Below are positions 9,912-47,413 of a DNA stretch of 64,000 nt, one piece after another. This DNA comes from a virus. Its lineage: Duplodnaviria; Heunggongvirae; Uroviricota; Caudoviricetes. Location: IMG/VR virus record IMGVR_UViG_3300029621_000179; one strand, 5' to 3'. Made by a program: the position numbers and the translations under genes. The notes beneath the pieces are model-generated. The model had not been told where the DNA came from. It did not search any database and saw only the letters and a program-made list of their open reading frames with translations. How positions within the stretch are numbered: position 1 is the first letter of the stretch; each line of letters begins with the position of its first letter.

Positions 9912-9919
9912 TACGGAAT

Positions 9920-13700: not shown

Positions 13701-13838
13701 AGTTGAAAAGAAGAAAGGAAATTAAGAGAATGAACGGAAACCATGAATAGAGACAGGGCAGGCAGTTTTTGTGGGAGCCTATTTGTGGGCAAGGGCAAAG
13801 GCAGCCTGCTTTGTGATACAGGAAAAAGAGGACAGAAC

Positions 13839-15969: not shown

Positions 15970-16189
15970 GAAGATTATCGGTGTGTATCCGATGTTCAAC
16001 ACCGGGGGTATCTGTGTACATGCGATTGACGATGCGGAAGATAAGGTTCTGGCATCCGTGAACGGGGAAAACCCGGAGTGGTGCGAGATGGCTGAACAGC
16101 CGCAGGAAGATGGAGATGAAATGGAGTCGGGCTTTTTGTTCGGCTCCTTTTTCGTGCCGTTTTCAGGGGTCATTCGCATGGGAATCTGA
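15961..16189 (+). CDS. small hypothetical protein (GTG start)
   Basis: AGGAGG 9 nt upstream of GTG; 76 aa; low support. Confidence 0.2.
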
Positions 16190-16205
16190 ATTAGGAGGAA
16201 CCTAC

Positions 16206-17477
16206 ATGAAAGCGACTGCTGAACTGAAGATGCTGCCGGTGTCCGTACTCAAGCCGGCTGCATACAATCCCCGGAAAAAGCTGAAGCCGGGGGATAAAGA
16301 GTACGAGAAAATCAAGAACTCCATTACGGAGTTCGGCTTCGCAGATCCTTTGGTGGTCAATGCCGACATGACGATTATCGGTGGTCACCAGAGACTGACA
16401 GTAGCGATGGAGCTGGGCTACACCGAAGTGCCTTGTGCGGTGGTGGACATCGACAAGACCAGGGAGAAGGCCCTGAACATCGCACTCAACAAGATCACGG
16501 GTGCATGGGATGATTCTCTGCTGGCTGATCTTTTGAAGGACATTGAGGATTCCAACTTCGACCTCGGTAAGACAGGCTTTGACCCGCCTGAGATCGAGAC
16601 GCTGTTCAACAAGGTCCACAGCAAAGAGGTCAAGGAAGATGACTTCGATGTGGAATCGGAGCTGAAGCAGCCGTGCTTCTCCAAAGAGGGCGACCTCTGG
16701 CATCTGGGTAAGCACATCGTTCTGTGCGGCGATTCCACCAAGCCAGAATGCTACGATACCCTGATGGACGGCACCAAGGCAAATCTGGTACTTTCCGATC
16801 CCCCTTATAACGTGGATGTGGAAGAAACGGCTGGCAAGATCCTGAACGACAACATGGGCGATTCGGAATTCTACCAGTTCCTGCTGGCAGCGTTCCAGCA
16901 GATGCACGGGCATCTGGCGGATGACGGCTCCATCTATATCTTCCATGCAGATACGGAAGGGCTGAACTTTAGAAAGGCATTCAAGGATGCAGGGTTCTAC
17001 CTGTCCGGGTGCTGTATCTGGAAGAAGAATGCTCTGGTGCTGGGACGCAGTCCTTACCAGTGGCAGCACGAGCCGTGTCTTTACGGCTGGAAGCAGAAGG
17101 GGAAACACCAGTGGTATTCCGACCGGAAGCAGACGACCATCTGGGAGTATGACCGGCCGAAGTCCAACAAGGACCATCCGACCATGAAGCCCATCGGTCT
17201 GATGAGCTATCCGATCCGAAATTCCACCATGACCAACGGCATCGTCCTCGATCCGTTCCTTGGCAGCGGTTCTACCCTGATCGCCTGCGAAGAAACCGAC
17301 CGTGTGTGCCGAGGCATTGAGCTGGACCCGAAGTTCGTGGATGTGATCGTGAAGCGTTATATCGAACACAGCGAGGGTCACTACGATGATGTGTATGTCA
17401 TCCGTGACAGTCAGAAGCTGAAGTTCGAGGAAGTGGCGACCTTCGAGCCGGAAAGGGAGGTCGCTGATGGAGAATAA
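16206..17477 (+). CDS. ParB-like nuclease domain fused to N6-adenine/N4-cytosine DNA methyltransferase
   Basis: RBS GGAGGA; ParB N-terminal box (LKPAAYNPRK, IIGGHQRL); DPPY motif (LVLSDPPYNV) and a C-terminal SAM-binding region. Confidence 0.8.
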   Translation: MKATAELKMLPVSVLKPAAYNPRKKLKPGDKEYEKIKNSITEFGFADPLVVNADMTIIGGHQRLTVAMELGYTEVPCAVVDIDKTREKALNIALNKITGAWDDSLLADLLKDIEDSNFDLGKTGFDPPEIETLFNKVHSKEVKEDDFDVESELKQPCFSKEGDLWHLGKHIVLCGDSTKPECYDTLMDGTKANLVLSDPPYNVDVEETAGKILNDNMGDSEFYQFLLAAFQQMHGHLADDGSIYIFHADTEGLNFRKAFKDAGFYLSGCCIWKKNALVLGRSPYQWQHEPCLYGWKQKGKHQWYSDRKQTTIWEYDRPKSNKDHPTMKPIGLMSYPIRNSTMTNGIVLDPFLGSGSTLIACEETDRVCRGIELDPKFVDVIVKRYIEHSEGHYDDVYVIRDSQKLKFEEVATFEPEREVADGE

Positions 17478-19596
17478 ACAGCTGACCCTCGGCAGCCTCT
17501 TTGATGGCTCCGGGGGTTTTCCATTGGGCGGGCTTTTGACCGGGCAGATCACTCCGGTGTGGAGCAGTGAGATCGAGCCGTTTGCCATCCGGGTCACGAC
17601 CAAGCGTCTGCCGCAGGTGAAGCATTATGGAGATGTGTCTGCTATCAGCGGTGCAGACCTACCTCCTGTAGACATCATCACTTTTGGCAGTCCCTGTCAG
17701 GATATGTCCATCGCGGGTAAGCGGGACGGTCTGGATGGTTCACGGTCCAGCCTGTTTTACGAAGCAATCCGAATCGTGAAGGAAATGAGGTGTAAGACCA
17801 ATGGAGAAAAACCAAGATTTATCGTGTGGGAGAATGTGCCAGGGGCCTTCTCCTCAAACAAAGGACAGGACTTCAAAGCAGTCCTCGAAGCCGTCATCGG
17901 TGTTAAAGAACCGTCCGCCTCGGTGCCTGCGCCTGAGAAGAAAGGATGGCCCGACGCTGATTACTACGTGGGAGGCGGATGGAGCGTCGCGTATCGAGTT
18001 TTTGATGCACAATGGTGGGGCGTTCCCCAAAGAAGAAAACGTATCTACCTTGTCGCAGATTTTGCAGACCAGAGTGCCCCAAAGGTATTATTTGAGTCCG
18101 AAGGCGTGTCTCGGTATTCTGCGGAGGGCTTCCGTGCGTGGCAAAGAGCTGCCGCCGGTGCTGAAAGCAGCACTGGAGAGACAGGCTGCAGTGGAGCAGG
18201 AGGACGGCTCTGTCTGAACGATCAGGGCGGAGAGAGGATGGATGTGACGGAAGAGGTGACAGCCACCCTCCGTGCAGAGGCACATCATCCGCCGTGTGTT
18301 ATGGAAGCCGCTGGTTTCTGTACCGAGCATTCCGCAAATGCCAGAAGCATTGGATACGAAGAGGAACGGTCACCGACCCTCCGGGCTGGCGTCGTGCCGG
18401 CCGCCATCGCACTGGAAAATCACCCTGCGGACAGCCGGGTGAAGATTTCCGAGGACGGTAAGGTACAGACACTGACAAGCCGGTGTGGTACGGGTGGCGG
18501 TAATGTCCCGATGGTCATGGACGCTGTTGAAAATTCAGTGGAAAGCCCGGTGAAAGAAGTTGAAAACTCTCCGGCGGTCACATTGAAGATCCGTTCCGGG
18601 TGTGAAGGCGGTGGCAAGGGCGCTATCTGGCAGGAAGAAAAGTCGGCTACCCTCGGCTGCAACAACGACCAGACACTGTTCGTTCCGAAATGCTACGGTG
18701 TCTGCTCTAAAGCCAGCCACTCCATGATGTCCGATAATCCGCAAAGCGGCTTCTATGAAGCGGAGACCTCCCGGACACTAGACCGCAGTGGTGGAGATCC
18801 GACCTGCAATCAGGGCGGTATCTGCGTGGTAGAGCCGGTCGCCTTTACCCAGAACCAGAGGGATGAAGTCCGGGATCTGGGAGAGAAGTCAGCGGCACTT
18901 GCAGCAGAGCCGGGGATGAAGCAGCAGACCTTCGTCCTGCAGGGTAATATGATCGGCCGCAAGGATGAGAACGGTCCGCAGGGGGATGGCGTCAATGAGG
19001 ATGTCTGCTTTACACTGGATGCCACTGACCGCCATGCAGTCTGCGCACCGGAGGATGTGTATGCCATGACCACCGGCTCCTATATGCAGGTGGCAAAAGA
19101 AGTCGCACCGACTCTGATGGCACGGGACTACAAAGACCCGACCACCATCGCACCGGTGCCGCATCTGAACGAGGGTGTCATGGGAACGGTGGCAACCGGG
19201 GCGCATCCAAGCGGCTTCAACGGGCAGGATGCTTTCAATGACCGTCTGGTCATCGATAACCCGGAAGCGCAGCCGGCACCTGTGACCTATACCGTCCGCC
19301 GCTTGACACCGACCGAGTGTGCCAGACTGCAGGGCTTCCCGGACTGGTGGTGCCGGAACCTTGGAACAGAAGATCCGACCGAAGAAGAGCTGGCGTTCTG
19401 GGCAGATGTGTTTGAAACGCACCGCAAAATCGTGACCCACGCCAAGAAGCCGAAAACGGAGAAACAGATCCGGAAATGGCTGGCTGACCCGTATACGGAT
19501 TCGGCAGAGTACCGTATCTGGGGCAACGGCATATGCTTAGCCAACGCATTTTTTGTTCTGGCCGGCATCGCATGGTGTGCAGGTCTGGAAGAATAA
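17467..19596 (+). CDS. DNA (cytosine-5)-methyltransferase with ~400 aa variable region (probably multispecific)
   Basis: Motif I LFDGSGGF, motif IV GSPCQDMSIAGKR, motif VI ENVPG, and late motifs TPTECARLQGFPD. A very long target-recognition insert lies between motifs VIII and IX. Confidence 0.85.
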   Translation: MENKQLTLGSLFDGSGGFPLGGLLTGQITPVWSSEIEPFAIRVTTKRLPQVKHYGDVSAISGADLPPVDIITFGSPCQDMSIAGKRDGLDGSRSSLFYEAIRIVKEMRCKTNGEKPRFIVWENVPGAFSSNKGQDFKAVLEAVIGVKEPSASVPAPEKKGWPDADYYVGGGWSVAYRVFDAQWWGVPQRRKRIYLVADFADQSAPKVLFESEGVSRYSAEGFRAWQRAAAGAESSTGETGCSGAGGRLCLNDQGGERMDVTEEVTATLRAEAHHPPCVMEAAGFCTEHSANARSIGYEEERSPTLRAGVVPAAIALENHPADSRVKISEDGKVQTLTSRCGTGGGNVPMVMDAVENSVESPVKEVENSPAVTLKIRSGCEGGGKGAIWQEEKSATLGCNNDQTLFVPKCYGVCSKASHSMMSDNPQSGFYEAETSRTLDRSGGDPTCNQGGICVVEPVAFTQNQRDEVRDLGEKSAALAAEPGMKQQTFVLQGNMIGRKDENGPQGDGVNEDVCFTLDATDRHAVCAPEDVYAMTTGSYMQVAKEVAPTLMARDYKDPTTIAPVPHLNEGVMGTVATGAHPSGFNGQDAFNDRLVIDNPEAQPAPVTYTVRRLTPTECARLQGFPDWWCRNLGTEDPTEEELAFWADVFETHRKIVTHAKKPKTEKQIRKWLADPYTDSAEYRIWGNGICLANAFFVLAGIAWCAGLEE

Positions 19597-19728: not shown

Positions 19729-19759
19729 TTGATATTTGACCGGTTCAGAGTGATATATG
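19729..19759 (+). promoter_or_regulatory. variant copy of repeated phage promoter (GGCCTTGATA-N-TGaTATATG)
   Basis: Shares the GGCCTTGATA...AGAGTGATATAT core with the copy at 22957; the leader contains CTACCGAAAAG. Confidence 0.4.
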
Positions 19760-19820
19760 TGCTACCGAAAAGAACATCGGGATGCACAAAAACAGAAGAA
19801 AACGAAAGGGGCAATGAATT

Positions 19821-20912
19821 ATGTTGAAATTTGAATTGAACATAGCAGACCGTAAGACACTTGCAAATCGCATGGAGGAGCTGACGGGTATCCATCCTTA
19901 CTACACCAGAGCACCGCTGTATGCTTATGACATCGGCAACTACACCATCGACCGGGACGGCAATCTTCTGGTCGAGCCGGAGAATGCAGATGCCGAGCTG
20001 CTGACGACCCTGCTGAATGAGGGACTGATCCGCGGCGGCGAGAGCATTGAGAGCACGGATGACCAGCCGGAAAACACAGAGCCGACCGAGAATTTGACAG
20101 CGGAGCCTGTGACCGAAGAGGAGCCGGATGATACGGCAGAGGATGGTGCAACAGAGGATGAGCCGGATGCAGAGGAATCGGAAAGCGAAGAGCAGCCGGA
20201 AGCAGAAGACCAGCCGGAAGAAGTGCCGCTGGATCTGGAACTTGCTTTCCCCACCAGCCAGCATAACGGCGTGAGCCTTCGCAATCTGGTCAACCTCATC
20301 TACAGCCGGGGCCGACTCATCAGCAAGGCAACGGGCGGGCACTTCCATGTGGAAACCGACCTGGTCGAAACACTGCGGGATGACAGCTGTACTTACACGG
20401 TGGCAAACTTCATCGAGGCGCTTAAGAGTTACGAAGCACAGTGCGGAACTGCGATGGAAGGTCTGGTGATCACAGAAGAAAAGGTTTCCTTCACAGGATT
20501 CCCGACGGCTTCCGACTATGATCATCTGACGGCTTTCGGTCACCTTGCCATTCTGATGAACCAGCAGGCGATCAGCCAGAAGCGCATCCAGGCAAAGGAT
20601 GTCAACGATGAGAATGAGAAGTATGCACTCCGCACATGGCTCCTGCGGCTTGGGATGAACGGTCCGGATTTCAAAGAGACCCGCAAGATCCTCATGGAGA
20701 ATCTTTCCGGCCATGCGGCTTTCCGGACGGATGAGGAAGCACAGAAGTTCCTTGCAAGGGAAAAGGCAAAACGGGATGCCCTGAAAGCCGCGAAACAGGC
20801 GGCACAGAACAGCAATCCTGCCACTGGGGAAACGGCCGCACAGGATGCAGCCCAGCCGACACAGCCCGACTGTGGGGTGGATACGGCGCAGATGCTGGAG
20901 GCGGGAGCGTAA
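19821..20912 (+). CDS. amidoligase-like paralogue (divergent N-terminus, acidic linker; C-terminal half homologous to 21145..22083)
   Basis: The C-terminal half aligns with the downstream amidoligase (HFHVE vs VHIHIG; EKYALRTWLLRLGMNG vs DKYAMRCWMLRLGFIG). The N-terminus is different and there is a poly-acidic stretch. Confidence 0.45.
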   Translation: MLKFELNIADRKTLANRMEELTGIHPYYTRAPLYAYDIGNYTIDRDGNLLVEPENADAELLTTLLNEGLIRGGESIESTDDQPENTEPTENLTAEPVTEEEPDDTAEDGATEDEPDAEESESEEQPEAEDQPEEVPLDLELAFPTSQHNGVSLRNLVNLIYSRGRLISKATGGHFHVETDLVETLRDDSCTYTVANFIEALKSYEAQCGTAMEGLVITEEKVSFTGFPTASDYDHLTAFGHLAILMNQQAISQKRIQAKDVNDENEKYALRTWLLRLGMNGPDFKETRKILMENLSGHAAFRTDEEAQKFLAREKAKRDALKAAKQAAQNSNPATGETAAQDAAQPTQPDCGVDTAQMLEAGA

Positions 20913-21068
20913 GCTCCCAAGCCCCCAATGGGGGCCGGAAAATAAGTGAGACCCTCTTCCATTGTACCGATATTAACTCTGAAAATGTACATTATCAAGC
21001 AGATAAACCGCAGAAATGTACACGATCATTCTGCCTCATATTTGTCGAATATATGTTCTTTTATATCC

Positions 21069-21097
21069 TTGCTATTATCCGCACCTGACGGTAATAT
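21069..21097 (+). promoter_or_regulatory. repeated phage promoter copy (TTGCTA-17-TAATAT) + conserved leader
   Basis: Same hexamers, spacing and GCACATACCGAAAGGG leader as the copies at 26895, 27566, 28186, 28779 and 29262. Confidence 0.5.
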
Positions 21098-21144
21098 GCA
21101 CATACCGAAAGGGAAAACAAGGAAAAAACAAAGGAGAACATACC

Positions 21145-22083
21145 ATGAACGATAAAACAAGAGAGCAGATTGAAGCCATGAAAAACCAGACCATCGGAGT
21201 TGAGATCGAGATGAACAACATCACCAGAGAAAAAGCGGCAAGAAAGGTTGCCGAGTACTTCGGAACCAGAGCATGGAACGCCGCCAGCGAGTACGGATAT
21301 TACAGCTGGGCTTGCAAGGACGGACAGGGCAGGGTTTGGAAATTCCAGAGGGATGTGAGCATCTACGGACCGGACGCAGAAAAATGCGAACTGGTCACCC
21401 CGATCCTCACCTACGACGACATCGAGTCCCTGCAGGAAATCATCCGGCTGCTCCGCAAGGCAGGCGCAAAGAGCAGTCCAAGCCGCGGATGCGGGGTCCA
21501 CATCCACATCGGCAAAGGCGACCACACCGCAAAGACCATCCGCAACCTTGTGAACATCATGGCGGCACACGAACAGCAGATCGGCAGAGCCATCCGGATC
21601 GACGCAGGGCGTACCGGACAATATTGCCGGGTAGTCGACCACCGCTTCCTCGACCGGCTGAACCGCGAGAAGCCGACCACCATGCGCAAGCTGGAAGACA
21701 TCTGGTACGAAGGCAACGGTTCCAGCTGGGAAAACCGGAATGCCCACTACAATTCAAGCCGGTACCATATGCTGAACCTCCATGCCACCTTTACAAAAGG
21801 AACCATTGAATTCCGCCTTTTCCAATTCGCAGACCCAGCGGACGGAAAGCGTAACGGACTGCATGCCGGTGAGATGAAAGCCTACATCCAGCTTTGCCTC
21901 GCAATGAGCCAGCTTGCCAAGATGGTCAGAACGGCAAGCCCGAAGCCCCAGCAGACCGACAACGACAAATACGCAATGCGGTGCTGGATGCTCCGGCTGG
22001 GATTCATTGGTGAGGAGTTCGCAACGGCAAGGGAAATCCTTCTGCGGAATATGGAGGGCAACGCAGCATGGCGCAACAAATAA
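21145..22083 (+). CDS. putative amidoligase (Amidoligase_2 / glutamine-synthetase-like fold)
   Basis: N-terminal Glu-rich strands (IGVEIEMNN, ELVTPIL) and GCGVHIHIG resemble the Pfam Amidoligase_2 family; it neighbours AIG2/GGCT genes as that family does in Firmicutes. Confidence 0.55.
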   Translation: MNDKTREQIEAMKNQTIGVEIEMNNITREKAARKVAEYFGTRAWNAASEYGYYSWACKDGQGRVWKFQRDVSIYGPDAEKCELVTPILTYDDIESLQEIIRLLRKAGAKSSPSRGCGVHIHIGKGDHTAKTIRNLVNIMAAHEQQIGRAIRIDAGRTGQYCRVVDHRFLDRLNREKPTTMRKLEDIWYEGNGSSWENRNAHYNSSRYHMLNLHATFTKGTIEFRLFQFADPADGKRNGLHAGEMKAYIQLCLAMSQLAKMVRTASPKPQQTDNDKYAMRCWMLRLGFIGEEFATAREILLRNMEGNAAWRNK

Positions 22084-22151
22084 GCGCCAGCTGTACGGGC
22101 ACCTTTTGGGCGGGCAACCGCCCTTGAGGTGGTAGAAGGAGGTGCAGATTT

Positions 22152-22388
22152 ATGAAAAGCACGTTAAAAAATGAAAGCACACCGGGCGGCAGGACCTTTA
22201 AGGTGACCATCACCGAGACCTACCAGAGAACGGTGACCATTTATGAATCCGAAATGAAAGAGCCGACCGTGGAGGAAGCCCAGCGAGTGGCAGAGGACTG
22301 GTGGCAGGACAGCCAGATTGAGCTTGGGACAGATGATTTTCAGGGCGTGGAATTCACTGGCAGGGAGGACGGTGAGGCGGATGTTTGA
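22152..22388 (+). CDS. small hypothetical acidic protein
   Basis: 78 aa ORF with RBS GGAGG; it overlaps the next start by 8 nt. Confidence 0.35.
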   Translation: MKSTLKNESTPGGRTFKVTITETYQRTVTIYESEMKEPTVEEAQRVAEDWWQDSQIELGTDDFQGVEFTGREDGEADV

Positions 22389-22902
22389 ATTGATCAGCCG
22401 AAGCCCATCCAGATATTATCTTGCCTACGGAAGCAACCTCGACATGGAGCGGATGGGAAAGAGATGCCCATATGCTGTAGTGGTCGGCACGACCGAGATC
22501 ATGGGCTACCGGCTCCTGTTCAAAAAGAGCAAGACCGGCTGCTATGCCACCATTGAACAGGACGCCAATGAAAGCGTACCGGCAGTGGTCTGGAAGCTCT
22601 CGGAATATGATGAGCTCCTGCTGGACCGGTACGAGGGCTGCCCAAGATACTACTACAAGAAACAGTTCCAGCTTCCGGTCTGGAACCTGAACGGGAACCG
22701 CATGAAAAAGGCAAAGCCCTGCATCGCTTATGTGATGCACGAGGACCGGCGGCTTGGCTGCCCGGATGCCGAGTATTTTGAACTGCTGCGCGGCGGATAC
22801 AGCGACTGGGAATTTCCGCTGGACACACTGAAGCGTGGACTGGCAGCTAGTATCGGAAGGGCGGAAGCCATCCGGTATCTGAAGAAGCAGCAGATGATGT
22901 AA
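22381..22902 (+). CDS. AIG2/gamma-glutamyl cyclotransferase (GGCT)-like protein
   Basis: YLAYGSNLDMERM is the hallmark YxAYGSNL motif of the GGCT/AIG2 fold; ~173 aa. Confidence 0.7.
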   Translation: MFELISRSPSRYYLAYGSNLDMERMGKRCPYAVVVGTTEIMGYRLLFKKSKTGCYATIEQDANESVPAVVWKLSEYDELLLDRYEGCPRYYYKKQFQLPVWNLNGNRMKKAKPCIAYVMHEDRRLGCPDAEYFELLRGGYSDWEFPLDTLKRGLAASIGRAEAIRYLKKQQMM

Positions 22903-22956
22903 GAGTACACGATCAAAAGCAAAAAACATTGTGCAGTATATGATGCTCATCGGCCT

Positions 22957-22986
22957 TGATAAATCAGGGCAGAAGAGTGATATATA
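22957..22986 (+). promoter_or_regulatory. variant repeated promoter copy (TTGATA-18-TGaTATATA, extended -10)
   Basis: GGCCTTGATAAATCAGGGCAGAAGAGTGATATATA followed by CCATACCG; it lies upstream of the second GGCT-like gene. Confidence 0.45.
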
Positions 22987-23032
22987 CCATACCGCCAGAC
23001 AAGAGCGGAGAAAACCGAAGGGAGAGATTCAA

Positions 23033-23512
23033 ATGAAGAATAAGAAATATTACATCGCCTACGGCAGCAACCTGTCGGTGGAGCAGATGGCATACCGGTG
23101 TCCGGATGCAAAAATTGCAGGGCAGGCGGTGCTGGCAGGCTGGGAGCTTTTGTTCCGGGGCTGCGCCACCATCGCACCGAACCCGAAGAAGAACACGCCG
23201 GTTCTGGTGTGGGAGATTTCGGAAAGGAACGAAGGAAACCTCGACCTCTATGAGGGCTACCCGAATTACTACCGCAAGGAAGACCTGAACATCGAACTGC
23301 TCCGGGAAGGGGCAGAACCGGAGATGGTGACCGCAATGGTATATATCATGGAGAACGACTTCGGACGCCGCGCACCGAGCCGGTATTACTACAAAGTCCT
23401 GCATGACGGCTACAAGGCATTCCACTTCCCGATGCACATCCTCGAAGGTGCGCTGAAGGAATGCATGGATAAGGATGCCGCCCAGCGGATGATCGAGGAG
23501 GTGCAGGCATGA
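23033..23512 (+). CDS. AIG2/GGCT-like protein (second paralogue)
   Basis: N-terminus KKYYIAYGSNLSVEQM; the same fold motif as the first paralogue. Confidence 0.7.
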   Translation: MKNKKYYIAYGSNLSVEQMAYRCPDAKIAGQAVLAGWELLFRGCATIAPNPKKNTPVLVWEISERNEGNLDLYEGYPNYYRKEDLNIELLREGAEPEMVTAMVYIMENDFGRRAPSRYYYKVLHDGYKAFHFPMHILEGALKECMDKDAAQRMIEEVQA

Positions 23513-23976
23513 ATTTCGCAGATCAGAAAATGGTCAAGAAGTTGAGAAAAGAGTTCCCGGTCGGATGCCGAATCGTCCTCGATGAGATGGATGACAGGCA
23601 GGCACCGCCCATCGGAACGCAGGGAACCTGCAACGGGGTCGATGATGCCGGAAACATCTTGGTGAATTGGGACACCGGAAGCCATCTGAACATTGCCTAC
23701 GGCGCGGACAGTTGCCACCGTGTGGCAACGGATGCCGAGGTCAAGGTGTCGCTCGACCACCTTGGTAAAACGCGACAGACCGGCCCACGTTGCCCCAGGT
23801 GCGGAGCAAAGCCTGACTGCTACGACCATCAGCAGCAGGCACTCAGCCGAAGGGCGGACATCCAGATCTGCAACCGCTGCGGAACGGAGGAAGCGTTAGA
23901 GGACATTGCATGGGGCGGACAGCAGAAGATGCATCTTGCAGACTGGGCAATTGTGAAAGGGGGTTGGGTCGAATGA
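23509..23976 (+). CDS. DUF4314 domain protein with C-terminal zinc ribbon
   Basis: FPVGCRIVLDEMDDRQAPPIGTQGTCNGVDDAGNILVNWDTGSHL fits DUF4314; a CPRCG...CNRCG zinc ribbon follows. Confidence 0.5.
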   Translation: MNFADQKMVKKLRKEFPVGCRIVLDEMDDRQAPPIGTQGTCNGVDDAGNILVNWDTGSHLNIAYGADSCHRVATDAEVKVSLDHLGKTRQTGPRCPRCGAKPDCYDHQQQALSRRADIQICNRCGTEEALEDIAWGGQQKMHLADWAIVKGGWVE

Positions 23977-24344
23977 AAGTTCTTCTGATCAAACCGATGG
24001 AGCATCCGCAGGTGGTTGACATTGAAAACTCCCTGAAAGAGTTCTACCGCATCCTCGACTGCGACTGCATCACAGCCACCTACCCGTGGGAAGAACGCGC
24101 CGCCCTGGTCACCGATGACAACGGGCTGTTCACCGAGAAGCCATTCAGCCGATACATTCCGGAGCTGGAGCAGCCCATCAAGGGAAACTTCTTCATCTGC
24201 GGATTGGGCGAGGAAGATTTCGCAGAGCTGCCACAGGACCTGATTCAGAAATTCAGGGAACGCTTCTGGGTGCCGGAGGCATTCGTCAGCATGTTCGGGC
24301 AGATGGCAGTCATCCAGATGGATGACGGAACGAAGCCGGAATAA
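23973..24344 (+). CDS. DUF3846-like protein
   Basis: MKVLLIKPMEHPQVVDIENSLKEF... resembles the DUF3846 N-terminus; RBS AAAGGGGG. Confidence 0.4.
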   Translation: MKVLLIKPMEHPQVVDIENSLKEFYRILDCDCITATYPWEERAALVTDDNGLFTEKPFSRYIPELEQPIKGNFFICGLGEEDFAELPQDLIQKFRERFWVPEAFVSMFGQMAVIQMDDGTKPE

Positions 24345-24416
24345 GATACCACAATCAGAAAAAATACCCTCTCGGCCAGAAAAGACCGGGAGGGCTTAGT
24401 TTAACAGGAGGAGCCT

Positions 24417-24608
24417 ATGGGACACAGAAAGATGCCGGCTTATGGCGAGAGGGAACACGGCGGCAGATACATTCTGGATGAATACGAATGGTCAAGAAAC
24501 CACTGTAAGGCGGTGACCATCCGCAGATGGAAAAGGGACCTAAAAAAGAAAGCCAGAGCGCATAACCGCAGGGTGATGCATCAGGCAATGCAGGGCGAAG
24601 CCGATTAG
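24417..24608 (+). CDS. small basic hypothetical protein
   Basis: 63 aa ORF; RBS AGGAGGAG. Confidence 0.3.
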   Translation: MGHRKMPAYGEREHGGRYILDEYEWSRNHCKAVTIRRWKRDLKKKARAHNRRVMHQAMQGEAD

Positions 24609-24614
24609 ACGGAA

Positions 24615-24650
24615 AATGGGGGCCTCAAAAGAATGGGAACCCCCTTCCAG
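24615..24650. terminator. candidate bidirectional terminator between convergent genes
   Basis: GGGGG...CCCCC stem with T-runs on both strands (CUUCCAGUUU on plus; AUUUUCC on minus). Confidence 0.3.
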
Positions 24651-24661
24651 TTTACTGTATA

Positions 24662-25062
24662 TTACCTCTGGAAAGCAACGATAGCAAGGAGAACCGCCGC
24701 CATAATGTACACAAACATCTGGCAGCGGTTTTGTGTATCATACCAAACCAAAACGGGGGATACGAGGCAGAACCCCAGCTTCTGCTGGGGGAGCCTTTTG
24801 GGATTCCTTAGAAGAAATCCCAAAAGGCTCATGCCGACCTCGTTCAGTCGTTCCTCCATGCTGTGGTAGTGCCAATCTTCTTCCTCTTCTTCGTCCTCTT
24901 CCTCAAGCTCTTCTGGGAAGGGGTCGTGCCGCCATCCGGCTTTCTGGTATTCTTCTTCCCGGATGTCGTTGCGGTCGTAAATATCCAGCTCGTATTCTTC
25001 TTCAAGCTCTGCGATGCGGTTTTCGATTGCGGTTTCAACTTCTGTAATGGTCTTTTTCATGG
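24662..25062 (-). CDS. acidic protein with C-terminal hydrophobic (membrane-anchor-like) segment
   Basis: RBS GGAGGA on the minus strand; MKKTITEVETAIENRIAELEEEYE..., then a poly-Glu run, then a C-terminal hydrophobic stretch; the only minus-strand gene in this region. Confidence 0.4.
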
Positions 25063-25209
25063 TTTTTGTCCTCCGTTTTTGGTTTGGTTTTCTTTGCTTT
25101 CGTTGTGTGTATAATGCCGCAGAAACACATATATAGCAAGTCAATCAGGGGTTATATATGTACCAAACATGAGGGGCAAAGATCGTTGATAATATGACGT
25201 TTTATGGCC

Positions 25210-25238
25210 TTGCTATCACAGGGCGGTGACGGTAATAT
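25210..25238 (+). promoter_or_regulatory. repeated phage promoter copy separated from its gene by the IS insertion
   Basis: TTGCTA-17-TAATAT plus an ACAGCTAC leader (as in copy 26895); the IS left end begins 41 bp downstream. Confidence 0.5.
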
Positions 25239-25292
25239 ACAGCTACAAAAAGCAAAGGAGTGGTGTTAGAATATAAATAGTACAAAATAAAC

Positions 25293-25643
25293 ATGACCAT
25301 TTTCAATAAATATTATATGATAGTCATAGATCAAGAGAGGAGAATGGTTATGGCAAGAGGTACAAGGTATTCACAAGAGTTTAAGGAAGATGCAGTAAGA
25401 TATCGTTTGGAGCATCCGGAGGTTGCACTTCGTAAGTGTGCTGAAAATCTTGGAATTAGTGAATCTGCACTGAAGAGTTGGATGAAATCAGCAAAGGAAC
25501 ATGAAGGAACTGTTCCGACCCGTGGTTCAGGCAATTACGCAAGTGATGAGGCCAAAGAAATCGCACGTTTGCAGCGAGAGTTACGCGATACGAAGGATGC
25601 ACTTGAAGTATTAAAAAAAGCAATCGGTATTCTGGGAAAATGA
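25293..25643 (+). CDS. IS3-family transposase OrfA (HTH)
   Basis: RBS GAGAGGAG; helix-turn-helix N-terminus (LRKCAENLGISESALKSW) and a leucine-zipper-like C-terminus; slippery A_AAA_AAA at 25613-25619. Confidence 0.8.
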   Translation: MTIFNKYYMIVIDQERRMVMARGTRYSQEFKEDAVRYRLEHPEVALRKCAENLGISESALKSWMKSAKEHEGTVPTRGSGNYASDEAKEIARLQRELRDTKDALEVLKKAIGILGK

Positions 25644-26563
25644 CAAAAACTCTTTACGCTGCTACATCTAGATATGTAGAAGAAATCAACAACCTGCCTG
25701 TGAAACGTCAAGTTTCTGTCAGCGGGATACTGAAAAAATTGGACGTTTCACGATCTGGTTACAATGCATGGAAGAAACGGGTTCCTTCGGACACGTCTAT
25801 TCGGCGAACCGTTTTAAAAGAAAAAATCCAAAAGATTTATGATGATTCACATCAAAACTATGGTGCTCCTAAAATTGCAGCTGAATTACGAAAATCCGGA
25901 GAAAATATTGCTGAAAAAACAGTAGGAAATTACATGCGTCAAATGGGAATAAAAGCCCAATGGATCAAGCCATATACTCAAACAACCATTGACTCTGATC
26001 TCAGCCAGGAACTAAAAAATATCTTAAACGAACAATTTAATCCAGAACATCCAGATGCTGTATGGTGCTCAGATATCACTTATATTTGGACGTATGAAGG
26101 ATTTGTGTATCTTACAAGCATTATGGATCTATATTCCAGGAAAATCATTTCCTGGGTGCTGAGTGAGACGTTGGAGGCATCTCATGTAGTAAAATGTATT
26201 GAGAAGGCAAAACAGTCCAGACATATTGAAAATCCTCTGATTTTCCATTGTGATAGAGGATGCCAATACGTATCCGAAGCATTCCGTAAGGCAACAGAGG
26301 GAATGCTTCACAGTTATTCCAAGAAAGCTTATCCTTGGGATAATGCCTGCATAGAATCGTTCCATGCCCTTTTAAAGCGAGAATGGATTAACCGTTTTAA
26401 AATTTTCAACTACACTCATGCATATAAACTGATTTTTGAATATATCGAGACGTTCTACAATACAGTCCGTATTCATAGTCATTGTGGATATTTATCTCCA
26501 AATGAATATGAGGAAGAATATCTAAAAAATCTGGAAATGAACGTAACATACTTAGCAAGTTAA
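25640..26563 (+). CDS. IS3-family transposase OrfB (DDE/rve integrase core)
   Basis: DDE region DITYI...FHCDRGCQYVS...ESFHALLKREW in the -1 frame relative to orfA. Confidence 0.8.
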   Translation: MTKTLYAATSRYVEEINNLPVKRQVSVSGILKKLDVSRSGYNAWKKRVPSDTSIRRTVLKEKIQKIYDDSHQNYGAPKIAAELRKSGENIAEKTVGNYMRQMGIKAQWIKPYTQTTIDSDLSQELKNILNEQFNPEHPDAVWCSDITYIWTYEGFVYLTSIMDLYSRKIISWVLSETLEASHVVKCIEKAKQSRHIENPLIFHCDRGCQYVSEAFRKATEGMLHSYSKKAYPWDNACIESFHALLKREWINRFKIFNYTHAYKLIFEYIETFYNTVRIHSHCGYLSPNEYEEEYLKNLEMNVTYLAS

Positions 26564-26637
26564 CAATTACATAAAAAAGGAAAATTGGTTGCATTTAATT
26601 TGTACTTTTTCTTGACATAGGACCAGAGGACAGCAAA

Positions 26638-26814
26638 ATGGCTGATTGGAGAACATGGAAAAAAGGGAGAAAGACAACATGGCACTGGAACGAATTCGAT
26701 GGAAGCGGAAGACGGGAAGGAATCATCACCGAGGTTCATGAAGACCATGCGATTATGGAAGCAGACGGCATGCACCTCTGGATCGACGATGACACGGCAG
26801 AGATGTTCAGCTAA
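26638..26814 (+). CDS. small Trp-rich hypothetical protein (58 aa)
   Basis: ATG after AGAGGA, just downstream of the IS right end; probably the gene originally driven by the promoter at 25210. Confidence 0.3.
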   Translation: MADWRTWKKGRKTTWHWNEFDGSGRREGIITEVHEDHAIMEADGMHLWIDDDTAEMFS

Positions 26815-26894
26815 GAAAACGGGGAGGGAAACCTCCCCGGATAAACACATAAATCCTCCAGATCAGGGGGCAGATGATCGTGTACTTTAGCCGC

Positions 26895-26923
26895 TTGATA
26901 GTATCCGGCAGTGACGGTAATAT
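26895..26923 (+). promoter_or_regulatory. repeated phage promoter copy (TTGATA-17-TAATAT)
   Basis: Preceded by the conserved ATCGTGTACTTTAGCCGC. Confidence 0.55.
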
Positions 26924-26953
26924 ACAGCTACCAAAACGAAAGGGGCAAAGAAC

Positions 26954-27160
26954 ATGGAACGCTACACTTACGAGATCACCTTTACACGGCTGGATGGACA
27001 GCCGGATGAAATCCAGCAGCACACCAGCGAGGAGCTGGCAAGAGAATGCTTCCGGCTTTTCGATGAGCCGGACAGCGCAGAGATGTACAGCAAAATCGAA
27101 CTTAGCTGCCACGACTGGGAAACAGGCGCGGATGAGATTCTGGAAACGATGACATTTTGA
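26954..27160 (+). CDS. small acidic hypothetical protein
   Basis: 68 aa ORF preceded by the leader and RBS AAAGGGG. Confidence 0.45.
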   Translation: MERYTYEITFTRLDGQPDEIQQHTSEELARECFRLFDEPDSAEMYSKIELSCHDWETGADEILETMTF

Positions 27161-27175
27161 GAGGAGAACAAAAAC

Positions 27176-27436
27176 ATGACCTACACAAAAATCAACCTTT
27201 ATCTTGCAAACGGAATTCCAGAGGCACTCAGCAACCTCTGGTACGGAAGCGACAGTGCGGTGGTCGAGATCAGGGATGCCGTTGAGGATGCGAAGAACGG
27301 CAAGGACCTTCTGAACCGCATCCAGAAGATGAAGCTCCTTCGGAAATTCACCCTCGACAGGGAGAACGACAAGCGCATCCGCTTCAAGGGAACGGACTGC
27401 TGGCGCAACGTAAGCTACCTCGAAATCATCCGCTAA
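27176..27436 (+). CDS. small hypothetical protein
   Basis: 86 aa ORF; RBS GAGAGGAG; co-transcribed with 26954. Confidence 0.45.
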   Translation: MTYTKINLYLANGIPEALSNLWYGSDSAVVEIRDAVEDAKNGKDLLNRIQKMKLLRKFTLDRENDKRIRFKGTDCWRNVSYLEIIR

Positions 27437-27457
27437 AGGCAAGACCGACAGGCGCAA

Positions 27458-27483
27458 GGGGCTGGAAATGACCAGCCTTTTGC
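27458..27483 (+). terminator. intrinsic terminator
   Basis: GGCTGG-aaatga-CCAGCC followed by TTTTG. Confidence 0.45.
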
Positions 27484-27565
27484 TCGTGTCTGTCTTCCGA
27501 AAGCTGGCATGAAAAGCACATAAATATGACAATTACAGGGTCAAATGATCGTGTAGTTTAGCCGC

Positions 27566-27594
27566 TTGATAGTGTTTCGAGGTGACGGTAATAT
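27566..27594 (+). promoter_or_regulatory. repeated phage promoter copy (TTGATA-17-TAATAT)
   Basis: ATCGTGTAGTTTAGCCGC upstream; the leader GTGCATACCGAAAGGGGAAAAC...ACGGAGG follows. Confidence 0.55.
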
Positions 27595-27638
27595 GTGCAT
27601 ACCGAAAGGGGAAAACAACAAAAACGGAGGATACGACA

Positions 27639-28088
27639 ATGACGAAGAACGAAGACCGCATCAATAAACTTTTCAAGGAACTGGTACCGGATACGGGCAA
27701 GGCAGACAGCCTCGCAGGGGAGCTGGTAAGGGCAATGAGCCGCATCGGATACCGCTTTTACAACGACGGCGACCAGCTGGGCATCGGCTACGGCAAGGAA
27801 ACCTGCAACCCTGCAGGGCGGTTCCTTGGAGCCAAGGGCAACGACAAAATCGCTAAACTGACTGCAGATGCCTGGGCAGTCTACAGCGAGGAAGCCTACG
27901 AAAAGGTTCTGGACATCCTTTGCGGAGCGGTTGCCGACTATGTTGAGCAGAACCCAGACCTTAGAAACCAGCCGACCGAAGATATGTGGGACTTCAAGGA
28001 TGAGGAAGAAGACCAGGATGACAGCTGGGATGAAGAGGAAGATGACTGGGGCGAAGAGGAAGATTACGAGGACGAAGAAGACTACTAA
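27639..28088 (+). CDS. hypothetical protein with poly-acidic C-terminal tail
   Basis: 149 aa ending DEEEDQDDSWDEEEDDWGEEEDYEDEEDY. Confidence 0.5.
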   Translation: MTKNEDRINKLFKELVPDTGKADSLAGELVRAMSRIGYRFYNDGDQLGIGYGKETCNPAGRFLGAKGNDKIAKLTADAWAVYSEEAYEKVLDILCGAVADYVEQNPDLRNQPTEDMWDFKDEEEDQDDSWDEEEDDWGEEEDYEDEEDY

Positions 28089-28103
28089 GCCAGAGAAACA
28101 CAT

Positions 28104-28135
28104 GGGGCTTGCCGGTAACGGCAGCCCTTTTCTTC
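28104..28135 (+). terminator. candidate intrinsic terminator
   Basis: GGGGCTTGCCG-gtaa-CGGCAGCCC followed by TTTTCTTCT. Confidence 0.35.
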
Positions 28136-28185
28136 TGCTGTAATACGCACAGTTCCGGGCGGCTATCTTTGTGTAGTATAGCCGC

Positions 28186-28214
28186 TTGATAGTGTGTGAC
28201 ATAGACGGTAATAT
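28186..28214 (+). promoter_or_regulatory. repeated phage promoter copy (TTGATA-17-TAATAT)
   Basis: TTGTGTAGTATAGCCGC upstream; leader GCACATACCGAAACGGAAAACC...ACGGAGG. Confidence 0.55.
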
Positions 28215-28258
28215 GCACATACCGAAACGGAAAACCAAGAAAAACGGAGGAAACCACC

Positions 28259-28450
28259 ATGAAGAAGAACATTACCAAGGAAGAAGAAAAAGCCCTGCTG
28301 GAGATCGCCAAGCGCCTGATGGCAGCGGTAGACAGCCGGGGCGACCTCGAAGCCCGCGACAATGACAGCGAGGACTTCATTGAGGTTCCGGTCTGGGGCG
28401 TCCAGAAAGCAATGGAGGAAGCCTACCTGCTGGGACGGATGACCAGATAA
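28259..28450 (+). CDS. small acidic hypothetical protein
   Basis: 63 aa ORF; RBS ACGGAGG. Confidence 0.45.
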   Translation: MKKNITKEEEKALLEIAKRLMAAVDSRGDLEARDNDSEDFIEVPVWGVQKAMEEAYLLGRMTR

Positions 28451-28522
28451 ACCGACAGCCTCCGACACAGCCCCACACAGGGGCAGATGTGGGGGTGTGG
28501 ATGCGCCAGGAAGGAAAAGCAC

Positions 28523-28729
28523 ATGGGAGAACGGATGATGGATACCATCGTGGAAATCTACAACCACATGAATGACAGCGATAAGGATGCCTTCACACTG
28601 GGGGATGCCGAGGATATGGTGGAAGACCAGATTAGGATGGACAAGGAAGCCGGGCGGGAACCGCTGACATATGACCCGCAGCTCTTTTACGATACCGTTG
28701 TGGAACTCATGGAGCAGGACGCAGAGTGA
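28523..28729 (+). CDS. small acidic hypothetical protein
   Basis: 68 aa ORF; ATG after GGAAGGAAAAG. Confidence 0.4.
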   Translation: MGERMMDTIVEIYNHMNDSDKDAFTLGDAEDMVEDQIRMDKEAGREPLTYDPQLFYDTVVELMEQDAE

Positions 28730-28778
28730 CGTACATTCTGCCTGGTATTCCGGGTGGAAGATCGTGTACTTTAGCCGC

Positions 28779-28807
28779 TTGCTATTCTTTGCACCTGACG
28801 GTAATAT
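28779..28807 (+). promoter_or_regulatory. repeated phage promoter copy (TTGCTA-17-TAATAT)
   Basis: ATCGTGTACTTTAGCCGC upstream; leader GCACATACCGAAAGGGGAAAGCC...ACGGAGG. Confidence 0.55.
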
Positions 28808-28864
28808 GCACATACCGAAAGGGGAAAGCCCCAAGGGAAAAACGAAAACACGGAGGAATTCACC

Positions 28865-29149
28865 ATGAAAAAGCATTTGATCGACTTTCCAGAAAACAAC
28901 ATCAGCATTGAGAGTTTCTACGACCGACTCAGACCTTGCTACGACAGCATCATGCAGTTCGGTGACCGGGTTTTGGTTGCCCAGATGAACTGGAACGGCA
29001 TGCTGGAGGGAGCGGTATACGGATTTGTGGAAGACCCAGAGGAAGGCTGGTCACCGATTGAGTGCCGACTGGAGCTTCTGAAGATTTCCGATGAGACCTA
29101 CACGGATGCTGGTCACGCGATCGAGTGGTGCATCAAGAACGCACACTGA
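28865..29149 (+). CDS. small hypothetical protein
   Basis: 94 aa ORF; RBS ACGGAGG. Confidence 0.45.
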   Translation: MKKHLIDFPENNISIESFYDRLRPCYDSIMQFGDRVLVAQMNWNGMLEGAVYGFVEDPEEGWSPIECRLELLKISDETYTDAGHAIEWCIKNAH

Positions 29150-29261
29150 AAAAGGGCAGAGCTCCTTCGGGGGCTTTTGCTCGTAGTGGCGGATTCTTCC
29201 AGTGTGGAAATACACATAAATCCGACAAAAAGAGGTGTGTATGATCGTGCAGCATAGCCGC

Positions 29262-29290
29262 TTGCTATGTCCGGGCAGTGACGGTAATAT
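29262..29290 (+). promoter_or_regulatory. repeated phage promoter copy (TTGCTA-17-TAATAT)
   Basis: ATCGTGCAGCATAGCCGC upstream; leader ACAGTCACAACGAAGGGAAAAGCC...ACGGAGG. Confidence 0.55.
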
Positions 29291-29348: not shown

Positions 29349-29726
29349 ATGACGAACAAAGCAAAAACCTACCTTAAGAACATTCAGGAAGCTGACACCG
29401 AGAAGAAGCTGATCGGCATCGAGATCGCCTTCAAGCAGGACATGACCCTTGGCTGCAGCGACCTCGGAAGCCTTTGCAGGGCGGCAGAAGACAAGCGGTA
29501 CAGCCTGCGGAATAACGAGGAAACGCTGAAGCTGAAGCAGATCCTTTTCTTCCGGACGAAAGCGGAGATGGATGCCTACCACGACATGAGCCGCAAGCCG
29601 GAAGACTGGACGGAAGCGGAGATCGAGCAGCAGAGAAGCCGCTTCTGCAGCGTCTGGCAGGTCATCGAGGAAGCGGAGCTGGTCGATGAATACGAGGCTT
29701 GGAAGGAAGCCAACCCCAACGCCTAA
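29349..29726 (+). CDS. hypothetical protein
   Basis: 125 aa ORF; RBS ACGGAGGA. Confidence 0.45.
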   Translation: MTNKAKTYLKNIQEADTEKKLIGIEIAFKQDMTLGCSDLGSLCRAAEDKRYSLRNNEETLKLKQILFFRTKAEMDAYHDMSRKPEDWTEAEIEQQRSRFCSVWQVIEEAELVDEYEAWKEANPNA

Positions 29727-29859
29727 CAGCACCCGAAAGGTACACGCCCCGAAAAGGGGCTGTGCCTCGTATCCGATGTGTTTTATATAAAGTTGCCGAA
29801 ATGGGAAACTATTTGTTAGTTATAATGAAAAGTTTCCTGCTTGGGAAAATGCTATTACA

Positions 29860-29887
29860 AGGACTTCTTTGGAGGTCCTTTTTCTTT
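29860..29887 (+). terminator. hairpin plus T-run upstream of terminase genes
   Basis: AGGAC-loop-GTCCT followed by TTTTCTTT. Confidence 0.35.
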
Positions 29888-40560: not shown

Positions 40561-40697
40561 GACTTTGAAGAGAAAAACCGCAACGTTGCTTCGTGATTAT
40601 TATATGCTGAACAATTTGAATTGATACACAGTATTTGCCTGTCTGTTTTACGCAGATGGGCTTTTCTTATGCCCAAAACGAGGAGGTGGTCATCCGC

Positions 40698-47398: not shown

Positions 47399-47413
47399 GG
47401 GGAGGTGCAGCCA

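Follow-up and report, generated by a model that had tools for sequence, protein, structure and literature searches.

A repeated promoter and leader module in the accessory island of a gut Clostridia phage: a probable portable cassette for expressing and exchanging small genes

The IMG/VR virus record IMGVR_UViG_3300029621_000179 (referred to below as the window, that is, the whole 64,000-nt stretch of DNA analysed) contains an accessory island of about 10 kb, bounded by DNA methylase genes and the small terminase gene (terS), in which the same promoter and leader module recurs ahead of one small gene unit after another. This arrangement raises the question of what the repetition is for: the copies might be the switch points of one regulon, leftovers of duplication, or units of exchange. 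Considering all the evidence, the repeats are probably portable regulatory cassettes of about 150 bp that express and shuffle accessory genes, similar to the promoter-early stem-loop (PeSL) elements of T4-type phages or to morons. The repeat family itself is directly seen, and so are the anatomy, conservation and distribution of its members and the chimeric junctions between them; the family is real and widespread and, by every sequence-level criterion, functional.

Twelve copies are present, all within 19.7-29.4 kb: seven exact and two diverged copies on the plus strand, and three on the minus strand (copies are labelled here by the position at which their -35 hexamer begins, with V denoting the diverged ones). 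The exact plus-strand copies have the form TTGMTA-N12-GACGGTAATAT, and GACGGTAATAT occurs seven times in the window, on the plus strand only, against 0.42 occurrences expected by chance. The pattern TTGMTA-N17-TAATAT, with 0.18 occurrences expected, is found at 21069, 25210, 26895, 27566, 28186, 28779 and 29262 on the plus strand and at 20998->20970 and 24687->24659 on the minus strand. A sequence-only reading of this DNA had listed exactly these seven plus-strand positions and at least nine copies in total, and the count of twelve, obtained from a profile scan and a 12-way alignment, bears it out. Its description of the diverged copies required correction, since TTGATA of the second one begins at 22956 rather than 22957, and GGCCTTGATA and AGAGTGATATAT are 12 nt apart in both, instead of 18 or 19. 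The profile, built from 208 non-identical family members, detected 11 copies in the window, exclusively between 20990 and 29370, with scores of 60-120 bits for the seven plus-strand copies, 23-28 bits for the three minus-strand copies (21062-20990, 24739-24641 and 25197-25043) and an E-value of 0.003 for the variant at 22905-23040. V19729 scored below the profile threshold, but in the 12-way alignment it has CTTGATA, the -10 ATAT and the leader TACCG in common with the other copies. Each of the ten gene units in the island is headed by one copy, the orientation of copy and gene always agrees, and the -10 hexamer is separated from the ATG by 31-59 nt, in agreement with the earlier proposal that the module heads every accessory unit. 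The minus-strand copies, an IS3-family insertion sequence (IS) that cuts P25210 off from its gene, the wide distribution of the family and its possible role as a recombination substrate go beyond that proposal.

The conservation pattern was read from 48 family copies of related loci that were not required to match the search pattern. In these copies, the -35 hexamer reads T48 T46 G48 [C32/A16] T44 A41 and the -10 hexamer T42 A48 A48 [T32/C9/G7] A48 T48, an A located 7 nt downstream of the -10 is present in 48/48, and the GAYGG motif preceding the -10 reads G38 A44 [C31/T11] G45 G40. The 12-nt spacer varies, with no column above 30/48. The 12-way window alignment displays the same invariant columns, and TTGMTA-17-TAAnAT is thus shared by the 12 window copies and the 48 unforced relatives. 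Because the hexamers and the start A are fixed while the spacer is free, a merely recent segmental duplication is excluded in favour of functional conservation; the same pattern argues against a longer duplicated segment, which the sequence-only reading had named as one outcome that would undermine it. The invariant TA...T, the free fourth position, the exact 17-bp spacing and the purine at +1 together are, at the level of sequence, a classic housekeeping-sigma (sigma-A) promoter signature, from which we infer promoter activity, the start point and the use of sigma-A; early expression would likewise be predicted. Simple consensus scoring gives matches at 8-9 of 12 positions, so the earlier description of the promoter as strong is not established, and the G at -14 within GAYGG is the sole match to an extended -10.

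Directly upstream of the -35 lies a GC-containing box of 21 bp (ATGATCGTGTACTTTAGCCGC; consensus AT..TYGTGYA.T.TA.C..C), which is more conserved than the spacer, T-GTG-A and TA being present in 35-47 of the 48 copies. The box abuts the -35 and is locked to its orientation; in P20998 it is shifted 10 nt away, equal to one helical turn (GATCGTGTAC at 21027->21018, 19 nt upstream of the -35 vs 9 nt in the plus-strand copies). It may be a binding site for a protein or an UP-like element. The sequence-only reading had described the box as conserved upstream of the copies and as a possible operator. Among the seven exact plus-strand copies it is exact in three, close in two and absent or inverted in the other two; its conservation and fixed orientation suit an operator, but its restriction to the island does not. 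No box was found elsewhere in the window, including the ImmR/ImmA/antirepressor region at 57.8-62.9 kb, and the arrangement is consequently not a repressor operator array in the sense of a site shared with the immunity region. An ImmR-like repressor operator was rejected on this basis.

On the RNA side, the leaders are A-rich and unstructured, with minimum free energies of -2 to -9 kcal/mol and z-scores of -0.2 to -1.25 relative to shuffles, and a comparison with Rfam gave no match even at E <= 1. A conserved ACCGAAAGGGGAAAA, a strong mimic of the Shine-Dalgarno (SD) sequence (GAAAGGGG), starts at or beside the predicted +1. The leader consensus (G/A)CACATACCGAAAGG... proposed earlier applies to four of the seven exact copies, while those at 25210, 26895 and 29262 read ACAG(C/T)(T/C)AC.... 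In 4/7 copies the SD-like element is located at +8 to +10 after the -10 and 24-40 nt ahead of the real ribosome-binding site (RBS), which in the leaders generally lies 20-35 nt downstream, and its calculated pairing with the 3' end of 16S rRNA (the anti-SD) reaches -8.9 to -12.0 kcal/mol. The true RBSs pair at -9.2 to -9.5 kcal/mol, and a value of -9 is attained by no more than 7% of background windows. For P26895 and V19729, this element and the functional RBS are one and the same. Given the strong pairing near the predicted 5' end, we propose that the element may act as a 5'-terminal ribosome-binding mRNA stabiliser or standby site of the STAB-SD type. In Firmicutes, such 5' SD-like elements bind 30S subunits and block 5'-to-3' decay.

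Comparison of the island with related loci (numbered below with the prefix L) indicates how the module may be used in exchange. Cassette order is broadly conserved, and relatives differ by whole cassettes whose junctions fall within modules. In L197, from an Acetatifactor metagenome-assembled genome (MAG), the segment corresponding to 28268-28763 in the window (DUF6900 and an 80-amino-acid (aa) open reading frame (ORF)) is missing, and a single module remains, which is nearly identical to P28186 upstream and matches P28779 in its downstream and leader part, with the crossover in the shared GACGGTAATATGCACATACCGAAA. A fusion of P25210 and P26895 occurs in L226, L054, L107, L020 and L065; L054 also joins the -35 of P21069 to that of V22956, and L044 and L156 join the boxes of P25210 and P27566. 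In addition, an extra cassette whose module is duplicated is present in L168, the segment missing from L118 is precisely module P26895 and its first gene, and phages of the L004 type have the gene order [6,9]|[0] vs [9]|[6,0] in the window. For L197 and L226 the chimeric sequence was followed base by base, and five further module-to-module junctions were recorded. Overall, 22 of 46 unique breakpoints fall in the regulatory 21% of the island (binomial p = 4e-5). Cassettes share 30-110 nt of near-identity and could thus be substrates for homologous recombination. The junctions lie at differing positions along the module, which points to homologous rather than site-specific recombination, and an integron-like mechanism was ruled out for this reason.

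The family extends far beyond this phage. TTGMTA-N12-GACGGTAATAT is present in more than 120 IMG/VR contigs, the majority of them recovered from the human gut, and a single locus can contain as many as 7 exact copies; among genomes, multi-copy arrays occur in Clostridia only, including the isolate Faecalibacterium intestinale CLA-AA-H281. Array hosts comprise Blautia, Faecalibacterium intestinale, Lawsonibacter, Wujia, Acetatifactor, Mediterraneibacter, Hominilimicola and Acutalibacteraceae; single matches in Bacteroidota and other phyla look like chance. The profile scan detected arrays of 4-10 copies in 63 scanned sequences, related viral contigs as well as Clostridia prophages, the island of the window counted in. 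In 61 arrays, 283 module-headed units were recorded, with a median module spacing of 624 bp, 31 distinct protein clusters of first genes (mostly unannotated) and 90 clusters overall. The array is always upstream of terminase or portal genes, and the last unit nearly always encodes the 125-aa protein beside terS. Phage reference collections yielded one match only, an unannotated faecal "Bacteriophage sp." fragment containing part of the island, and matches of the island in plasmid reference collections were limited to the IS3 transposase.

Taken as a portable cassette, the module would run from the hairpin of the upstream unit (terminator or insulator) through the 21-bp box, the -35, the spacer, GAYGG and the -10 to the leader. 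A host sigma-A-type promoter (TTGMTA, 17 bp, TAAnAT, with GAYGG before the -10) would initiate transcription 7 nt beyond the -10, at the invariant A; the resulting unstructured, A-rich leader would present the 5' SD-like GAAAGGGG and then the true RBS. Every small accessory gene or mini-operon would in this way receive its own transcription and translation signals, and recombination between cassettes would delete, insert, duplicate and re-order gene cassettes among related phages.

Several observations weigh against this account. The sigma-A consensus match is only partial, and the invariant -10 TAA and GAYGG are unexplained by the standard model beyond the G at -14; they could point to dependence on an activator or another sigma factor. 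P28186 has a weaker SD-like element (ACCGAAACGG), and two copies have one that base-pairs within a small GGGG/CCCC hairpin. The minus-strand copies P20998 and P24687 face a hairpin only, with no ORF. A GC-rich stable hairpin (-15 to -29 kcal/mol) does follow every unit, as the sequence-only reading had stated in assigning each unit its own terminator, but a clear plus-strand T-tract is present at only about three, and terminator function is uncertain because most of the hairpins have no plus-strand U-tract. The enrichment of breakpoints is also partly expected, since junctions between genes are favoured by selection and BLAST prolongs its alignments into conserved modules.

Among the rival explanations, a dedicated regulon deserves the most attention. 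Here the 21-bp box, perhaps with GAYGG, would be bound by one phage regulator (a lysogen repressor or an early activator) that switches the ten units together, a tenable though not a probable reading, and one compatible with cassette shuffling. Conservation of the box well beyond that of the spacer, its fixed distance and orientation relative to the -35 (it flips with the minus-strand copy, and the shift in P20998 is by one helical turn) and its GC content, unlike an UP element, all speak for it, and a sub-consensus promoter fits the need for an activator. On the other hand, the box has no dyad symmetry and is confined to the island, and P21069, P25210 and both variants either lack it or have it rearranged, while the search of the window turned up no regulator. 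ORF 9363, nominated in the sequence-only reading as a sigma region-4-like regulator, gave no sigma or helix-turn-helix (HTH) signal: no Pfam, PHROG or NCBIfam match was obtained, a PDB sequence search found none at E <= 10, and its AlphaFold model, of low confidence (pLDDT 67), retrieved nothing from the PDB with Foldseek at E <= 0.001. Homologues of ORF 9363 are numerous in gut metagenomes, all with at least 79% identity among the matches listed. It is one of two adjacent small helical ORFs at 9363-10366 (182 and 152 aa), of which ORF 9908 is likewise without a family or PDB sequence match. Alternatively, transcription from the modules could be middle or late and depend on an RNA polymerase modified by the phage or on a phage sigma-like factor, with GAYGG-TAAnAT as the true recognition element. 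This is improbable: GAYGG and the -10 TAA are indeed nearly invariant and depart from TATAAT, and the island lies immediately upstream of terS with the terS-adjacent gene as its last unit, but a conserved TTGMTA at exactly 17 bp is typical of a housekeeping sigma and atypical of late promoters dependent on an activator or alternative sigma, the window yielded no match to a sigma, ArpU or RinA-like family, and a hairpin and a 192-nt gap separate the last unit from terS. The same hairpin and gap, lying between the 125-aa gene and terS, softened the idea that the last module drives the packaging operon. The 125-aa gene was also considered as a late regulator and rejected; its model is a confident all-helical fold (pLDDT 89), with no significant PDB or BFVD match and no family match.

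A further view takes the units for lysogenic-conversion morons, which the prophage would express constitutively to the advantage of its host and not early in infection. Their promoter-gene-hairpin architecture is that of a moron, their presence varies among relatives, and no operator shared with the immunity region was found in the window; nevertheless, the view is unlikely, as the families concerned (amidoligase, GGACT, DUF3846, DUF4314, DpnD/PcfM, Nmad4 and acidic proteins beside orphan methylases) are typical of incoming mobile DNA, and PADLOC returned no defence-system matches in the window. This gene content, with the adjacent orphan methylases and S-adenosylmethionine (SAM) synthetase, would fit an establishment or counter-defence role, so that the early or anti-defence regulon of the sequence-only reading is suggested but not established. 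A bolder extension, which we consider rather unlikely, would see in the island, together with the SAM synthetase and orphan methylases, a phage equivalent of plasmid leading regions, situated at the cos/terS end, the last to be packaged and the first to be injected; the ten units would then be an early counter-defence and establishment regulon with a shared module and a single factor, and the module would be the currency of exchange among Clostridia phages and possibly conjugative elements. A cos site near terS is usual for phages with HNH/P27-type terminases, and if cos were in the 192-nt gap before terS, the island would, speculatively, occupy this last-packaged, first-injected end. Two other rivals fare far worse. 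That the copies are inert remnants of segmental duplication is very improbable: three of them (family D3) are similar up to about 67 nt upstream of the -35, yet conservation is position-specific, with hexamers and start A fixed and spacer free, orientation is always coupled to the gene, and the family is kept before 31 unrelated first genes in more than 60 arrays of different hosts. A structured cis-regulatory leader RNA (a riboswitch or a nut/put-type antiterminator) or a single-stranded DNA (ssDNA) promoter hairpin of the Frpo type is scarcely credible. A 5-bp inverted repeat, CGGTA...TACCG, does bracket the -10 and +1 in four copies, and the P29262 module folds as ssDNA with a z-score of -3.3; the other five of six folded modules, however, have z-scores of +0.3 to -2.0 with no conserved long hairpin, the leaders fold no better than shuffles and are without an Rfam match, as described above, and the inverted repeat does not covary in relatives, where GATGG and CATGG variants keep or lose TACCG independently. 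A map of the island is given in Table 1.

Table 1. Module copies, the genes they head and the associated hairpins, in order along the window (ΔG, folding free energy; element positions on the minus strand are written in the direction of reading).
Feature	Position	Strand	Elements and genes
V19729, diverged copy	19729..19820	+	TTGATA 19729-19734; AGAGTGATATAT 19747-19758; leader GCTACCGAAAAG; SD-like AACGAAAGGGGC at 19801 is the RBS; 363-aa ORF 19821-20912 (PHROG 2443, amidoligase-associated)
Hairpin ending unit 1	20915..20939	+	ΔG -15.4 kcal/mol
P20998	20970..21062	-	-35 TTGATA 20998->20993; -10 TAATAT 20975->20970; faces hairpin 20915-20939
P21069	21008..21144	+	-35 21069-21074; -10 21092-21097; operon of amidoligase 21145-22083, DpnD/PcfM 22152-22388, GGACT 22381-22902
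V22956, diverged copy	22903..23032	+	TTGATA 22956-22961; AGAGTGATATAT 22974-22985; inverted box GTACACGATC 22905-22914; operon of GGACT-2 23033-23512, DUF4314 23509-23976, DUF3846 23973-24344, 63-aa ORF 24417-24608
Hairpin ending operon 23033-24608	24611..24648		ΔG -16.6 kcal/mol; T-run on minus strand
P24687	24641..24739	-	-35 24687->24682; -10 24664->24659; then hairpin 24648->24611 and ATTTTCC, no ORF
Degenerate copy	25043..25197	-	-35 TTGCTA 25139->25134; 17-nt spacer; -10 CATTAT 25116->25111; leader ACACACAACGAAAGC...ACGGAGG; heads acidic 132-aa ORF 25060->24662
P25210	25153..25260	+	-35 25210-25215; -10 25233-25238; leader interrupted by IS at 25260/25261
IS3-family insertion	25261..26625	+	orfA 25293-25643; orfB 25640-26563; 3-bp target duplication
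Hairpin after 58-aa gene	26820..26839		ΔG -18.6 kcal/mol; T-tract on minus strand only
P26895	26833..26953	+	-35 26895; -10 26918-26923; SD-like CGAAAGGGGC is the actual RBS; 68-aa ORF 26954-27160, 86-aa ORF 27176-27436
Terminator-like hairpin after ORF 27176-27436	27447..27490	+	ΔG -28.8 kcal/mol; TTTT
P27566	27505..27638	+	-35 27566; -10 27589-27594; acidic 149-aa ORF 27639-28088
Terminator-like hairpin after ORF 27639-28088	28093..28134	+	ΔG -21.3 kcal/mol; T-tract
P28186	28129..28258	+	-35 28186; -10 28209-28214; DUF6900 28259-28450, 80-aa ORF 28487-28729
P28779	28718..28864	+	-35 28779; -10 28802-28807; Nmad4 28865-29149
Hairpin after ORF 28487-28729	28731..28769	+	ΔG -18.4 kcal/mol; overlaps upstream box of P28779
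Terminator-like hairpin after Nmad4	29154..29182	+	ΔG -17.6 kcal/mol
P29262	29198..29348	+	-35 29262; -10 29285-29290; conserved 125-aa all-helical ORF 29349-29726, last before terS
Hairpin after 125-aa ORF	29734..29769	+	ΔG -21.8 kcal/mol; closes last module-headed unit before terS intergenic region

With regard to individual copies, P20998 and P24687 point leftwards into the hairpins of the upstream plus-strand units, and their predicted RNAs would be only about 45-60 nt long. Both are conserved at the same positions in relatives, where the minus-strand copies are again weak, and they could encode small antisense RNAs, serve as insulators or be relics of inverted cassettes. The minus-strand ORF 25060->24662 contains an inverted repeat with 15-bp arms at 24791-24830 (GAGCCTTTTGGGATT...AATCCCAAAAGGCTC); the ORF may end before this repeat, or the repeat may be a terminator embedded in the coding sequence. 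The IS3 element separates P25210 from a 58-aa gene (26638-26814) and is absent from about 20 related loci, in which the module-to-module distance is 318 bp vs 1685 bp in the window. A promoter-like TTGACA-16-CAAAAT is located at 26612-26639, at the right end of the IS.

The window as a whole is a temperate tailed phage or prophage of gut Clostridia, of the HK97/P27-terminase type. A replication module at 0.8-13.6 kb encodes a DUF2800/PD-(D/E)XK protein, an Enc34-type single-stranded DNA-binding protein, a family-A polymerase, a DUF932 protein, an SNF2 helicase and a D5-type primase; a 187-aa ORF (10577-11140) with a PemK/MazF toxin domain at residues 61-175 overlaps the start of the primase ORF. 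The segment at 13.7-19.6 kb, directly upstream of the island, encodes the SAM synthetase (13743-14906), an HNH endonuclease (14910-15269), a ParB-fused N6/N4 DNA methylase (16110-17477) and a 709-aa C5 methylase (17467-19596); this HNH gene is about 14.6 kb from terS and not adjacent to it. Genes of the island are small and mostly without assigned function, and comprise amidoligase_2, DpnD/PcfM, two GGACT, DUF4314, DUF3846, DUF6900, Nmad4 and acidic ORFs. From 29.9 kb onward, a P27-type small terminase is followed by the large terminase and portal, both HK97-like. The true start of terS is 29919, 192 nt after the 125-aa ORF. Within this gap, a 64-nt segment (29790-29853) carrying TTATAAT and the inverted repeat GGGAAAC...GTTTCC is lacking in about 25 otherwise collinear relatives and could be a small insertion situated near cos or near the late promoter; it is followed by a terminator-like hairpin with a T-tract (29859-29880), just 5' of the terS RBS. 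Further downstream, a 1990-aa ORF (40635-46607), probably the tape measure, contains internal direct repeats of 128-132 nt at 43832-46311, and a 640-aa ORF (47405-49327) contains 35-nt repeats with 54/108-nt spacing at 48797-49047. An ImmR-like HTH protein, an ImmA-type peptidase and an antirepressor are encoded at 58-62 kb (58204-62156); these genes are flanked by ORFs for a CD1107-like mobile-element protein (57414-57848) and a type IV secretion coupling-protein-like product (T4SS-DNA_transf/TrwB, 62872-63957), which suggests an adjacent or fused conjugative element at the right end.

Phages of gut Lachnospiraceae and Oscillospiraceae are abundant, and their gene regulation has hardly been studied. 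The motif TTGMTA-N12-GAYGGTAAnAT and its leader mark accessory cassettes and delimit transcription units in hundreds of gut viral contigs. The rapid turnover of accessory genes would be explained if their regulatory cassettes recombine homologously, as PeSLs do, and a mechanism for which T4-type phages of Gram-negative hosts are the only described case would be extended to temperate phages of Gram-positive anaerobes. The contents of the cassettes (amidoligase/GGACT, DUF3846, DUF4314, Nmad4, DUF6900 and acidic small proteins) furnish a candidate list for counter-defence and host takeover. In addition, if the promoter and the leader with its 5' SD-like element work as we infer, they would provide a compact expression module for genetically difficult gut Clostridia.

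Several known systems resemble parts of this arrangement. The stoperators and start-associated sequences of mycobacteriophage clusters A and K are genome-wide sites of 13-17 bp that bind a repressor or are associated with translation. Like the repeats described here, they are short, asymmetric, locked to the direction of transcription and located in large numbers near gene starts of one genome; in contrast, they are not promoters, whereas the present repeat is a complete promoter and leader confined to one island. The STAB-SD of cryIIIA mRNA, reportedly described by Agaisse and Lereclus in 1996, and the polypurine 5' stabiliser of Bacillus phage early RNA, which Hue, Cohen and Bechhofer are said to have described in 1995 (both cited in PMC3997798), resemble the SD-like element in being strong purine tracts near an mRNA 5' end with no start codon after them. 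Four of the seven exact copies have such an element close to the predicted transcript 5' end and not used for initiation; the likeness consists of sequence resemblance and calculated anti-SD pairing, and in two copies the element simply is the RBS. Morons, reportedly described by Juhala et al. in 2000 and by Hendrix and colleagues for lambdoid and other temperate phages, are autonomous promoter-gene-terminator units inserted between phage genes and variably present among relatives. Ten units of this layout occur here, and the presence of cassettes varies among the 61 arrays. Classical morons each have their own unrelated promoter, whereas the roughly ten adjacent units of this island share one promoter-leader family, itself the homology for exchange.

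Anti-defence leading regions of conjugative plasmids, which use single-strand promoters of the Frpo type (Samuel et al. 2024, PMC11541004), share with the island small establishment or anti-defence-type genes beside orphan methylases, repeated dedicated promoters and the conjugative-element families DpnD/PcfM, DUF3846, DUF4314 and amidoligase. They differ in that a Frpo-type hairpin is not supported here and no anti-defence function was detected with PADLOC.

By analogy, the closest counterpart is the PeSL cassette of T4-type myoviruses. PeSLs unite a sigma-70-like promoter and a stem-loop in about 100 bp, number about 50 per genome in T4-type phages and occupy hyperplastic regions upstream of ORFans, where genes are lost or gained through recombination between neighbouring copies, with a chimeric PeSL as the product (Arbiol et al. 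2010, PMC2839356; Comeau et al. 2014, PMC4122927). In the literature searched, which did not cover all journals, no description of such cassettes in Clostridia phages, or of a Gram-positive version, was found. The differences are considerable. PeSL hosts are lytic T4-like phages, whereas the cassettes here belong to a temperate siphovirus-type phage of Gram-positive Clostridia and have no sequence homology to PeSLs. The PeSL hairpin lies within or beside the hexamers, while here the hairpins are cassette-specific and upstream of the conserved repeat; in place of the AT-rich tract of PeSLs, a conserved GC-containing box precedes the -35; the promoters match the consensus at 8-9/12 positions, whereas those of PeSLs are reported as identical to it; and conservation continues here into the leader and its 5' SD-like element. 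PeSLs have experimentally demonstrated promoter and terminator activity and form mini-circles, traits that are at most putative for the present cassettes. What the two have in common is a repeated composite motif of at least about 100 bp with a sigma-70-type promoter and, as a putative component in the present family, a stem-loop, placed once per small ORF of unknown function in a hypervariable accessory region and reaching as far as the SD and start codon of the following gene, as well as close relatives that differ by whole cassettes with a single chimeric motif at the junction.

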